DNA of 64,000 bases from Monosiga brevicollis MX1 (lineage: Eukaryota): contig NW_001865083.1 in assembly GCF_000002865.3 (NCBI RefSeq), forward strand, positions 142,852 through 206,851. The letters run 5' to 3'. A model generated the notes under the pieces. The model did no database searches and was not told the origin of the DNA. It saw only the letters and a list, made by a program, of their open reading frames with translations. Below, piece by piece: positions 29,801 through 34,567 of this stretch (position 1 is the stretch's first letter; each line of letters opens with the position of its first letter). The translations under genes were made by a program, and so were the position numbers.

Positions 29801-32800
29801 GCGGTGGCATCACGTTGCTGCCAATCCAGATGTGACCGTCATGGCGCAGCAGAAACTGAGGCAATGATGCTCCAATACGATTGATGACAAAGTGATTGGC
29901 TCTCTTCTGTCCCACCAACCAATCCCCGATCCGAATCACATCCGCATCCGATGTCGTCAACGACCAATCCGCTGGTGCTGGCGAGGTGGAATCTCCACCA
30001 CTCAGATAGAACGTGCCGCCCGATGAAATCACAAGCTGCGGAACCGATGCGCCGACTTGGTTGATCACAAAGTATGTATCGCTCTTTGGACCAAAGAAAA
30101 AGTCCCCGAGTCGCAGAACCGACGCACTGGCCGCCGTGTGGCACAAATCTCCGCTGGCCGCGGCATTGGCATAGGCCCCCGTAATGAAGCGGTAATCGCT
30201 GGTCACAACGGCCGCTGGGCGCACGGCGCCCTTTGGATTCATGATAAAGCTGTACGCATTGCGCGTTCCCAGCGTCCAACTGCCTAGCTCCAGGGTATCG
30301 TAGGTCCCGTCGTACGTTCCGAAATAGGTCGGCCCTGCATCAATGTCGTGCTTGATGGATGCCAGATAGCTTGCATTCACCAACTAGTTGACCCACAATA
30401 ATAATAACAACAACCGGAGTGAAACCGTCAAGTCCTGCCTCGAAATGCGCACGCTTGTCTCTCAGACCTAGGGGCCCATGTCCCCTCCTGGTTCCAACGC
30501 CAAGCATCCTCGTACCTCCAAGCTGGCTGTATACACCGCACCGTTGCTGTAAATGGCCATTGAAACTCGCAGGGATCCCAGGCGGTTAATCACAAAGATG
30601 TTGCCGTTATCAGGATGCGGGCCCATCACCCAGTCTCCGGCTTGATAGCAGTTCGAGGTCCCATTCAGTGGGGTTACAAGCCCGTCTGAATTGCCCGCGC
30701 GGTTGACAAACAGAATTCCATCGCTTCGCCACAGCATGGCAGGTGATCCTGTCCCATTGTTGGTGGAAGTGTGCCTACCAGCCCAGACACCCGTCGTTAC
30801 AACGACTTGACATTCAATCTTCAACTGATCGCGCCAGTAGTCGCGACGTCCTTTTCTTTTTCGCCAAACCCTTTGCCTGCTCGGCCATCACCCCGCTGCC
30901 TCACCATCCATCAAACACCAGCGTCCATTCACTTACGAAATCACAAAGTGGTCTGCGTCGTGCGGCCCAATTCGCCAGTTGCCCAGCTGGCGCACCCCAC
31001 TTGTCATGGGCGTCACATGAGACCACTCGCTACCAGCAGCGCCGTCGTTGTTGATTGTCACCACCCGCACGCGATCCTCGGTAAACACGCCGGCCGCTGA
31101 AATAGCCAGTACAGAATCAACACACAACAAATCATCAGACCATTGTTGACATGCCGATCCATCCACCAAATTCGTCCCCCGCCCCCCTCCGCACCAACGT
31201 ACCCGTATTCGTGGCCAGCAAGGCCAGGTTGTTGTTGCTCACAACGCCCATGCGCCAGTTGCCAAAGATTTCATCCCCAACCAAACGCTGAAACGCAATC
31301 CCCTCCAAGCTGATCAGTGGGTCTGCATTCTCCGTATCCAACACTACCTGCCCGGTCGTCAGCACTAGGATTTGGTGCATGCGCGCTCCCGATATGGACG
31401 ATACTGCAAAGCTCATCGTGCTTTCCGGTCGCATGTTGCTTGGCAAATACCCCAGGATGGCCGCCTTGTCCGAGTCCACCGTCGTTGCCCGACGCACACG
31501 ACCACGCAGCACCACCGTGTCCCCACGCAGCCCGTAGGCTGGCTCGTGGTACGTGGTTGTGTCAGCCACCACAAACACTTCGCGCAAGCTGGCAGGCAGC
31601 GTATCCAAGAGCGAGTGCCACTCGACATTGGCGCCGTTTTGGAAAAACGCTCCATCCAGCGACACATACACATTAGACGAGTTGCTGCGGCTGTAAACAG
31701 CCCCCGACGGCTGGATCTCCAGCTGGATTGCCACTTTGTTGTCGTGTGAGATGGTGGCAAACGTCATCACCTTGGTCGGTCGAGCATTGGAAGGCAGCGT
31801 CATGATTAGCATGTCGGCTGTGATGAGTCCTGTCAAGCATTGAGCCAAGCCGCGCAAGTAAATCCAGCCATCATCCGCCACCAGGTAGCTGGGGTACTCC
31901 CAGTTGTGACTACCATACGCGGCAAATCCATGGGCATAAGTTGATACGTTGGTCCATCCATCGTTGCTTGCAGAAAACTCCATGCTGTCCAAGCTAGCCG
32001 ACGTCGTGGCCGTGGCGACCCCATTAAAATGCACATGGCCCTCGAGCCAAATATCGATGCGATTGTAATCTGGACCAGAGCCCGAGTTACCAGCTGCCAT
32101 ATAAGCGACTTGAAGAGGAGGCCGATAACCCGAAGGAATGTAGGCCACGTCTGGCCCTTCTGCCGCCGAGGCTCCATCAACCATCGTCAGACTACCTTCC
32201 AACCGAATGCGCGAGACAGAAACGCCTCCCACCGTGATCGGGATCACGTATAGGCGTGGACTGGCACCACCATCCGCGGCAGCTGTCCAGGCCGCGGACG
32301 TTGGAAGGGACATGGATCCAGCGGCAATGGGGTTTTCAAGTGAGACATAGATGCCGTCCAATTCTGCGTGGATACTGCTGGCTGCTGAAGAGGAGGCCAC
32401 AATACTGCCTATTGGATTGACAGAAACAGCCCAATGATGTCAGCCAATGTGTCGAATAGGAAGAGCGGGCACACACACACACACACACACACACACACAC
32501 ACACACACACACACACACACACACACACACACACACACACACACACACACACACACACACACACACACACACACACACACACACACACACACACACACAC
32601 ACACACACACACCGTCGGTATTGATGATGTAGGTGCGGGCATGGCCGCTGGTGTGTGCAATGCCCTGACTGAGGGTTCGGCGGGAGGGGCGGTAGCCCTC
32701 GGGTAGAATGGCAATGGTTTCCCCGCCGACGACATTGCCACTGGATCGCCTTGCCAAACCTGCAGTCCCACAAGTAACATCTCATCAGTTCCAGGCACGA

Positions 32801-34567
32801 TCTGGTGGTCGACACCGAACCCAACAACAACAAGGTTTTGCATGGCCCGATACGACTGTATCCAACAGACGGCAGCCATGCAAAAACGCGTCGAAGACAT
32901 GGAGCTCACCAGAGACCAAAACACCAAACCGATCCAGGGTCAGAGCCACCGTGGACCATGTTCCGTCTTCATTCACGTAGTTGGGACCCAGCGTTAGACC
33001 CGTTCGAGCCAGCTGGTGACCACACCGGGCCGTGCCAAAATATCCCAGGTGAGCATCCATGAACAGATGGATGGTCGGCGATAAGCCTCTGAGAAAGGAC
33101 ATGCAAGCCATAGCCTACCGCAAAACGGATACCATCCAGACTGGCATCGCCTGAGAGAGTGCCGGTCTGGGACTTCTTTATAACATCGCCTGACGGATAC
33201 ACGTCGATGCGACAAGTTTCGTATGACTCACCAGGGTGGGATGCGGCCGGAAAGGACAGATCCATGGCGGGCCTCATTTCTAAACAGTAACAGCGATGGG
33301 CAGTCATCGCCAACGGGGTCAATGGCAATACGACGGAGAGTACCATTGTTTTTTTCTGACCTGCCGGCAAGGTGAACAAGGTGCCAAGAGAGCTGCGGCG
33401 AACGCGGCCTCGGCACTCGACGACGTTAGCCGTTGACAAGCGGCATTGCGGTATCTGCAAGCATTCAACAACCAGTTTGACCACCCATTTTGGCACAAAT
33501 ATTTGGTCGTGAGTCAGCTGCACCACCGTCCTTACTGCGCACACAGGGACACACACACACAAAAAAAAAAAAAAAAAAAAAAAAAAAAAGAAAAAAAAAG
33601 AATAGAAAGGAAAGTGCACGGCCGTGGTTGGGCATCGGTCAACGCACCGTCCACCCGTTGCCAATGAATGATGCGCCTGTGGCCATGGACATTGTCTGGA
33701 ACCTAGTGATACATCAGGCCCCCATCGCCGAGTCATCAGCACGGTGCTCATGGCTTGGTGTTGGCAACTGCGTTTTTCTGGCAACATTGTGCGAAACTCA
33801 CATGCCATTGACACTATCTCCGCCATTTTGAGGCGCTACCGAATAGATGATGCGATTGAGCGAGAAGTAGGTCGATCCTGGGACTTGAGCCGTGATGGCC
33901 ACTTGTCCGCTTACGCGAACATCCACACTACCATCCATTCAGGGTGAAGGTGAGTGTTTGTGGTGCTTGCGAAGATTAGTTGTTGTGGCTTGGCATGTTT
34001 GCATTCAAAGGCGCCATCAACAACTTTTTCCCCACTATTTCTTCAAGTTTACCCCTCTTCTTCCTTCCCCCCGCATGCTCGCACGCCTTTGGTGGAATAC
34101 GGACCGATGGGAATAAATGGTATCAGAAGTCGGAGCGGTGAAGGCCAGCGCAGCTTCAGGAGCATGGTCGGCCAGAATGGTGATGACGGTTTTGGTCGCA
34201 TCGACGATCTATGCGACGATGCAGCAGAGTTTGGCATGACATGCAAGCATGGGCACGGGCTAATCAGCCAAGGGACCAAGCGTGCGCAGCTGGCCGTCAG
34301 GGCAGAGGTGGGGCGCATGGCGATGAAAGCACCAAGAAGGGTGTTCACCTCGATATCACCACGTAGATACACGCGATCACCGTCGAGGGCGTACTCGGGC
34401 TGCATGTAGCCTTCTCGGGCAACAAACCCCTCTTCCAGCTGCAACGGAATCCATTGGATTTGCCCTGTCCAAAGCGGATGAGGCTAAGTGCTTGAAGTCG
34501 TGCCGTGTCGCCTTTAGCACAACGCCGTACCTTGTGCAGCCCCAAGCAACGAGACAAAAAGTAACAT
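26888..34567 (-). CDS. Putative large secreted modular protein: signal peptide, ~6 phage-tail-like beta domains, G-x-W-x-VG...FVIN repeats, TNFR-like Cys repeats, EPTITTDADG module and 7 FG-GAP repeats (could be two genes)
   Basis: MLLFVSLLGAAQ at 34567. Same-strand exons with GT-AG edges run through ORFs 32969-33826, 31135-32400, 30468-30824, 29343-30383 and 28725-29006 to the terminal exon 26888-~28430, which carries CPSGHYVTEACT...DTTC repeats and seven DLDNDG repeats. Confidence 0.6.
32470..32612. repeat. (CA)n microsatellite, intronic
   Basis: About 140 bp of perfect CA; it begins at a GT donor on the minus strand. Confidence 0.95.

Follow-up and report, generated by a model that had tools for sequence, protein, structure and literature searches.

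We analysed a window of 64,000 nucleotides (nt) from the choanoflagellate Monosiga brevicollis MX1 (contig NW_001865083.1, positions 142,852 to 206,851 of the forward strand). At window positions 26888..34567, on the minus strand, a model of 17 exons yields one open frame of 1841 amino acids (aa), which runs from an ATG at 34567 to a stop at 26888; an in-frame ATG at 34639 is a possible alternative start and would add 24 aa. The encoded protein consists, in this order, of a signal-peptide-like N-terminus (exon 1, aa 1-13, 34531..34567; short and hydrophobic, as judged by eye), six units that resemble the head domains of phage receptor-binding proteins (RBPs), nine copies of a second repeat, cysteine-rich TNFR_c6-like repeats, a linker and seven FG-GAP_3 repeats; no membrane-length hydrophobic segment was found in it. 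All of these features lie on the minus strand. The 16 introns are of the GT-AG type (mean length 135 nt), and nine of them lie upstream of the end of the sixth unit. The neighbouring genes are eukaryotic (RRM/FoP, TRM1, TPR plus GoLoco, ENTH). Lying among eukaryotic housekeeping genes and containing introns, the gene does not encode a virion protein of a phage tail module, and prophage or bacterial contamination is ruled out by the 16 introns, the splicing described below and the eukaryotic neighbours.

The six units, of about 105 aa each, span aa 14-689 (window positions 34462-31285) and are 15-30% identical to one another. The first triplet, delimited with leave-one-out hidden Markov models (HMMs), comprises U1 (aa 14-116, exons 2-4, 33837..34462), U2 (aa 126-232, exons 4-8, 33010..33809) and U3 (aa 233-337, exons 8-10, 32341..33009). 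The second comprises U4 (aa 341-461, 31969..32331) and U5 (aa 464-572, 31636..31962), both located by HMM, PHROGs, AlphaFold2 and structural alignment, and U6 (aa 576-689, 31285..31626), located by PHROGs and AlphaFold2. Each unit scores 20-50 bits against an HMM of the other five, compared to 11.1 bits for the best of 1000 shuffles per unit; no shuffle attained the unit scores, and a chance repeat is rejected. Together with the splice joints, these scores confirm the original prediction, made from the letters of the DNA, of about six tandem units of some 100 aa that follow a signal peptide and are interrupted by GT-AG introns; the motifs that it quoted are located in exon 10.

The same prediction likened the units to the heads of phage tail and receptor-binding proteins, and three kinds of comparison bear this out. 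In PHROGs, the units match the C-termini of minor tail proteins (E = 5e-11). A profile of 70 family sequences yielded six matches in the PDB at E ≤ 10, all of them phage proteins (E = 0.0085-0.22), namely the Pa223 tail needle, PSA gp15 and four p2-type RBPs. The AlphaFold2 model of the U4-U6 triplet (predicted local distance difference test, pLDDT, 90; predicted template modelling score, pTM, 0.90), when aligned to 48,161 chains, gave PSA gp15 as the top match (Z = 14.0, root-mean-square deviation (rmsd) 2.5 over 109 aa), followed by the Pa223 needle (Z = 12.9), bIL170 (10.8), TP901-1 (9.7) and p2 (9.4). The top seven rows (Z = 14.0-9.1) were all phage-derived chains; virophage Zav_19 (Z = 8.9), NMV_189 (Z = 6.4) and the adenovirus and reovirus knobs (about 6) scored lower. 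Foldseek returned no triplet match in the PDB at E ≤ 0.001, neither the units nor the second repeat were recognised by Pfam and NCBIfam at large, and in the ESM Atlas unit 5 gave only unnamed clusters (0.94), with recognition below threshold. The Pfam family of such heads, PF08931 (Caudo_bapla_RBP), is matched by five of 16 long homologues, four of them at or above the gathering threshold. By profile comparison, then, the units share ancestry with the head domains of phage minor tail and receptor-binding proteins, and they are predicted to fold as phage RBP heads, a trimeric fibre-head fold that is known across viruses (passages of 10.1101/2023.01.23.525297 and PMC7291167). A widespread eukaryotic domain without phage homologues is rejected as an identity for the units.

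Unit counts, which cover 150 listed matches of the 276 at E ≤ 0.001, point to the triplet as the basic element. Among these 150 matches, 27 have one unit, 19 have two, 70 have three and 34 have more than three; in 27 of the last 34, the number of units is a multiple of three (6, 9, 12, 15, 27 or 33), and a three-unit query favours matches with at least three units, not multiples of three. Gaps are short in 208 of 218 links within triplets and long in 71 of 82 between triplets. The predicted triplet superposes as a whole on Microbacterium phage Truong gp37, a minor tail protein that carries three units (template modelling (TM) score 0.78, E = 4e-19, rmsd 3.2), while position-specific HMMs did not assign units to positions within the triplet. 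Because the units come in multiples of three, the triplet likely mimics the phage trimer within one chain; it would rebuild the homotrimeric head as a single-chain pseudo-threefold assembly, and such a triplet would let its three clefts diverge. The earlier view of one multiplied domain holds as regards the repetition of the units, but the inherited piece is a triplet that already existed in phages and Saccharibacteria, so that the eukaryote's own contribution was probably just the duplication of one triplet.

Passages of PMC6115969 describe glycerol bound at the three inter-head interfaces of p2 and TP901-1, with His232, Asp234 and Arg256 as the p2 residues. In the profile alignment, a conserved R-x-D of the family aligns to His232-x-Asp234 of p2, and R/H-x-D/E is kept in 323 of the 519 family units among the matches listed. 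In the window, R-x-D is present in U1, U2 and U4, and U5 has Q-x-E. U3 and U6 lack R-x-D, and the aromatic platform formed by p2 Trp244 has no evident equivalent in the window units; because of these two differences, the ligand may not be that of p2, or a subset of the clefts may be inactive. Within each triplet, it is the third unit that is without R-x-D, in both the window protein and that of Choanoeca perplexa, and U6 of Craspedida sp. UC1 lacks it as well, which suggests that the clefts are non-equivalent. Several homologues bear sugar-binding domains (AbfB, SUEL lectin, tectonin).

Downstream of the heads, nine putative β-meander repeats of about 60 aa (G-x-W-x-x-G ... F-V-I; aa 691-1235, 28972..31281), which are missing from the original prediction, were found with HMMs and shuffles. 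Eight of the nine copies beat all 500 shuffles; copy 1 alone is not significant, its score being reached by two of 500. Nine copies are also present in the C. perplexa orthologue, and among the proteins compared the repeat is confined to choanoflagellate-type proteins. AlphaFold2 modelled three consecutive copies from a four-sequence alignment as β-meanders (pLDDT 80-93, pTM 0.55), for which the best structural matches, weak ones, are the shafts of Bdellovibrio mosaic adhesive trimer (MAT) fibres (Z = 3.9-4.6 over about 48 residues) and phage fibres, with the scores of WD40 blades barely below these (Z = 3.0-3.6). Comparison to BFVD gave TM scores of about 0.13 and rmsd values mostly of 20-50 Å, the ESM Atlas gave only leads under 0.9 (some of them phage fibres), and there was neither a tblastn match among phage records nor a sequence match to the MAT superfamily. 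As a lead only, nine copies would fit three further triplets. The stalk that follows (aa 1242-1436, 28106..28953; 24 cysteines) matches TNFR_c6 at E = 1.3e-9. The window protein has no membrane segment and thus lacks the anchor with death-domain or TRAF-binding tail that marks the TNF receptor superfamily, and no death-domain or TRAF-type Pfam domain was found in the orthologues.

Spliced contigs back 15 of the 16 introns, but most of these contigs derive from a sister copy, which shares about 94-97% of its sequence with the window. Contig depths vary along the gene and from one copy to the other. Thirteen introns (1-5, 7, 8, 10-13, 15 and 16) are skipped exactly at the predicted sites in contigs of runs X3-X5; for introns 9 and 14 the support consists of loose contig ends that carry the next exon, and removal of intron 6 was seen only inside a diverged stretch. 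One of the spliced contigs, of 1253 nt, extends from exon 2 into exon 10. None of the predicted joints is present in contigs of X1, X2 and X7, and the sister copy occurs in unspliced runs too; no listed run is recorded as RNA, and the RNA nature of the spliced ones is taken from the joints. The window's own alleles are seen in spliced form at intron 1 only (X3, X4); exact exonic pieces of them cover parts of exon 10 and of the FG-GAP module. Splicing thus holds for the gene family, and for the window copy a single full-length transcript over 26.9-34.6 kb is predicted; the splicing anticipated for this gene was thus found, but mostly in its sister copy. Intron 6 (33280-33360) is 81 nt long, in frame and free of stops, and if retained would add 27 aa to U2; divergence between window and sister copy is greatest in exon 7, which adjoins it.

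Two orthologues match most of the protein: that of C. perplexa (P0158; 35% identity over aa 1-1449) has six units and nine second repeats, and that of Craspedida sp. UC1 (P0009; 27% over aa 2-1452) has six units and at least seven detected second repeats. Units pair with those of C. perplexa position by position in five of six cases, with one tie, and in the tree described below the first triplets of the two proteins pair with each other. In both orthologues a longer cysteine-rich stalk is followed by a membrane-length hydrophobic segment (Kyte-Doolittle (KD) hydropathy 2.5 and 3.2) and a tail that bears tyrosine motifs, NPxY-type ones among them, and FG-GAP repeats are absent; both are predicted to be type I membrane proteins. 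Another EukProt protein (P0163) is 57% identical to P0158, and the named full-length relatives are craspedid choanoflagellates only, so that the window gene, too, is likely that of a craspedid. We regard this as a real, spliced and conserved choanoflagellate protein family, built on what is predicted to be a phage receptor-binding fold. Six metagenomic exon-like fragments (P0013, P0025, P0037, P0040, P0074 and P0145) carry a head unit followed by a second repeat and reach 78% identity with the protein of C. perplexa, which places the family in wild populations.

The 3' module of the window gene (26891..28098) encodes a linker and seven FG-GAP_3 repeats (PF13517, E = 1e-87) with D-x-D-x-D-G motifs at 50-aa spacing, as in FG-GAP_3/VCBS β-propellers, and is predicted to form a seven-bladed propeller; its only sequence matches in the PDB are the fungal lectins PVL and AAL2 ('Lectin 2'), at E values of 2e-8 and 6e-8. 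The TNFR-like and FG-GAP modules are thus both present as described earlier, but the linkage to FG-GAP holds for the window gene and not for its orthologues, and appears to be a recent local chimera. Similarity to the sister copy stops at 28099, and similarity to a neighbouring FG-GAP gene starts at 28102, just past the signal peptide of that gene, so that the identity breakpoints place the inferred fusion point in an overlap of 4 nt (28099..28102). This neighbour (35412..36686, minus strand) is a single-exon gene for a signal peptide, linker and FG-GAP repeats, 74% identical in nucleotides to the 3' module of the window gene. Beyond 28099, reads of the sister copy continue the cysteine repeat, with G-Q-E after a cysteine as in C. 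perplexa (by eye). Because sister identity ends where identity to the neighbouring gene begins, the window copy is likely a recent in-frame secreted chimera, in which FG-GAP repeats replaced the membrane anchor. Between window and sister, synonymous and non-synonymous differences number 19 and 17 codons in the units, 8 and 11 in the second repeat, and 0 and 2 in the stalk, which gives no usable selection signal; these counts derive from 72 of 80 listed rows (about 170 differences overall), eight rows in indel stretches having been dropped and eight being intronic. A second FG-GAP paralogue (37160..38447, minus strand) is broken over three frames in the assembly, by pseudogenisation or sequencing errors, and 35412-38447 thus holds two more FG-GAP genes in tandem on the strand of the window gene.

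The best matches to the head module are giant signal-peptide proteins of up to 33 units, probably from protists, together with proteins of other choanoflagellates; the remaining homologues are phage tail proteins, pilin-like proteins of Saccharibacteria, a Bdellovibrionales protein and secreted proteins of bacterial type. These were found by an HMMER library search; a word-indexed search with exon 10 gave none. Four giant proteins (P0001, P0002, P0003 and P0008; up to 4821 aa) combine a cysteine-rich motif at the N-terminus with long coiled coils and with 15-33 head units arranged as triplets. The locus L001:40-9501 looks like a single transcript with an open reading frame of 3154 aa and a His/Arg-rich N-terminus. 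The Bdellovibrionales protein (P0118) has six head units, so that the module occurs in a bacterial predator too. All seven pilin-like loci found (L003-L009) are from Saccharibacteria, and one of them carries a C-terminal triplet (L006:2944 onward), a candidate for the tip with which these epibionts bind their hosts. A scan of the P0052 genome was negative.

In a tree (IQ-TREE) of 50 of the 173 triplets, which is unrooted and built on sequences 20-30% identical from a query-biased match list, the seven choanoflagellate-type triplets form one clade (Shimodaira-Hasegawa-like approximate likelihood ratio test, SH-aLRT, 98), and a branch with support 99 separates the giant proteins from them and from the triplets of phage-tail and pilin-like proteins. 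A FastTree tree of 124 rows gave a similar grouping, and a forced union of choanoflagellate and giant-protein triplets, a group named after the first tree was seen, was rejected (approximately unbiased (AU) test, p = 0.001). Given this placement and this rejection, eukaryotes likely gained the module more than once, the other protist-like proteins separately. The triplet likely entered the ancestors of craspedids once, from a pool of phages and Saccharibacteria, and was then duplicated, and a phage is its likely donor. The original prediction of a phage source is borne out in that phage homologues exist, but the best matches are giant protist-like and choanoflagellate proteins, and the domain also occurs in cellular bacteria. 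The strongest competitor, only somewhat short of even odds, is one in which another protist or a cellular bacterium supplied the triplet (in the bacterial case as an adhesin without a prophage, or as a Saccharibacteria pilin), with phage domestication being indirect. Triplets in Saccharibacteria pilin-like, Bdellovibrionales and many secreted bacterial- or protist-type proteins would fit such a donor, as would the position of P0075 and P0085, which look eukaryotic but group on the side of the phages, and the weak support (83) for the clade that is sister to the choanoflagellate triplets. Phage ancestry is favoured by the solved homologues, all of which are virion proteins, and by several proteins with phage tail N-termini on the choanoflagellate side of the tree (P0072, with phrog_538 at E = 2e-77, and P0115).

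We give a probability of roughly 0.6 to the following reading: the six phage-RBP-like heads pack as two single-chain pseudo-trimers that bind bacterial surface sugars, the orthologues being membrane receptors and the window copy a secreted chimera. In the ancestral form, a cysteine-rich stalk at the cell surface would carry the pair of pseudo-trimeric heads, glycans would be bound where adjacent units form a cleft, at the R-x-D strand of the family, and the clefts could vary in specificity because the units differ; tyrosine motifs in the tail would link binding to uptake or signalling. The 5' part would then have been copied into the FG-GAP gene cluster and fused where the signal peptide of those genes ends, yielding a soluble product with lectin-like folds at either end that might cross-link or opsonise bacteria. 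Several points weigh against this reading, beside the gaps in the candidate sugar site and the properties of the tree and AU test given above. Binding, ligand and localisation are its inferred parts; the window units give no direct match to PF08931; the matches behind the rule of three are mutually related, so that the counts are not independent; in the 30 letters listed of the sister copy past the junction, the membrane anchor is not seen; and no listed DNA or RNA contig bridges the junction at 28099. In addition, the fold is used for capsid decoration (passages of 10.1101/2023.01.23.525297) and, by the structural matches, as a tail-needle knob.

A broader version is possible but decidedly more tentative. 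In it, craspedids display a single-chain mimic of a whole tail fibre (two heads and three shaft segments, all pseudo-trimeric, on a cysteine-rich stalk) as a signalling prey receptor, the secreted two-headed lectin acts as an opsonin, and Saccharibacteria, Bdellovibrionales and several protist lineages each took up the three-unit head on their own, as a common but so far unrecognised module for gripping bacteria.

Less likely still, the ectodomain would be no bacterial sensor: it would bind self or substrate glycans (of the theca or stalk, glycocalyx, collar links or in cell-cell adhesion) or be a structural surface fibre. Such a role would suit a general trimeric knob that also decorates capsids (Zav_19, NMV_189), the absence of the R-x-D pair from two of six units, and the giant protist-like homologues, which with their coiled coils and up to 33 units resemble structural or extrusome proteins. 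Nevertheless, the tree places phage minor tail proteins and pilin-like proteins of Saccharibacteria closest, both of which should come into contact with the surfaces of bacteria, and the tyrosine-motif tails suggest signalling or uptake. A reading in which the family is real but its window copy arose by recent duplication and has no function, or by chimeric assembly, has about the same low probability. In its favour, the junction is unbridged in the listed contigs, junction-bin depth in X3 and X7 is fully accounted for by a sister-copy contig, the second FG-GAP neighbour is frame-broken, and most spliced contigs come from the sister copy; nonetheless, the fusion is in frame and exactly after the signal peptide of the FG-GAP genes, the 1841-aa frame is intact, own-allele DNA contigs lie on both sides (one of them, 1333 nt long, extends past 34760), and the 5' end, exon 10 and the FG-GAP part are each represented by own-allele contigs, spliced or exact. 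TNFR-like stalks are often part of trimeric assemblies, which counts in favour of homotrimerisation of the whole protein, as in a genuine tail fibre, with three-chain heads built from corresponding units. We consider this improbable: although the solved homologues described in passages of PMC7291167 and PMC6115969 are all homotrimers and trimeric fibre shafts are weak matches to the second repeat, an assembly of three chains would not explain why the units of a chain come in multiples of three, and AlphaFold2 packs three units rigidly within one chain.

If the two-headed sugar-binding receptor is true, a phage host-recognition domain has become a surface receptor of eukaryotes, in the lineage that is sister to animals. 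The siphophage RBP heads (p2, TP901-1, bIL170 and PSA gp15; PF08931) share with the window units the predicted fold (Z = 9.4-14.0), profile homology, the R-x-D position of p2 H232/D234 and, in the case of gp15, an L-D-G-I motif, whereas the window has six N-terminal copies in a spliced, secreted eukaryotic protein without a virion, and its trimer would be one chain of three differing units. Actinophage minor tail proteins (Truong gp37; PHROGs 3285, 3639 and 11445) share the three-unit module (TM 0.78 for the whole triplet), but have one C-terminal triplet on a virion protein, compared to two N-terminal triplets and a cysteine-rich stalk in the window. The triplet-bearing Saccharibacteria proteins have the same module at the C-terminus and lie on the same side of the tree but begin with a prepilin N-terminus, and no paper describing them was found in the literature searched. 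The fungal seven-bladed lectins PVL and AAL2 likewise have seven repeats of about 50 aa of the FG-GAP_3/VCBS type, whereas the window module is fused to RBP heads and absent from the orthologues, and its sugar binding is putative. In MYRF/MrfA, a eukaryotic protein uses a domain otherwise known from phage tail fibres, but there the domain is an autocleaving chaperone within a transcription factor and does not serve as an adhesin head outside the cell. The closest functional parallel, by analogy only, may be the MAT family, phage-like fibres of the predator Bdellovibrio, one member of which binds prey glycans (passages of PMC10769870). Here too a predator would display phage-fibre-like mosaic adhesins, and these fibres gave the top, though weak, matches to the second repeat; unlike the window protein, they are homotrimers of bacterial origin, whose tips are of the S74, TNF-like or C-type lectin kind.

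Passages of PMC4012994 leave open whether flow is enough to hold prey on the choanoflagellate collar or adhesive molecules do so, and the family offers a concrete, conserved candidate for prey adhesion or recognition, with a mutable predicted binding site and tail motifs. It also adds a triplet domain family, unannotated and thinly covered by Pfam, that spans phages, Saccharibacteria and protists. A literature search, from which subscription papers were left aside, found nothing on the protein family or on single-chain RBP-head triplets; the word 'phage' has no occurrence in the main text of PMC7971027, whose supplementary tables of horizontal gene transfer could still list an orthologue.

Elsewhere in the window, the TPR plus GoLoco exons at 19603-21333 (plus strand), which we take to be a Pins/LGN-like gene, fit a holozoan. 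At 1-1803 (minus strand), a long open reading frame contains near-identical 138-nt tandem repeats plus a shorter repeat, with weak and unconvincing Pfam matches (MalQ_N, Hia Trp ring). A 420-aa open frame at 38997-40256 (minus strand) has a weak HET domain match (E = 6.5e-4, below the cut-off).

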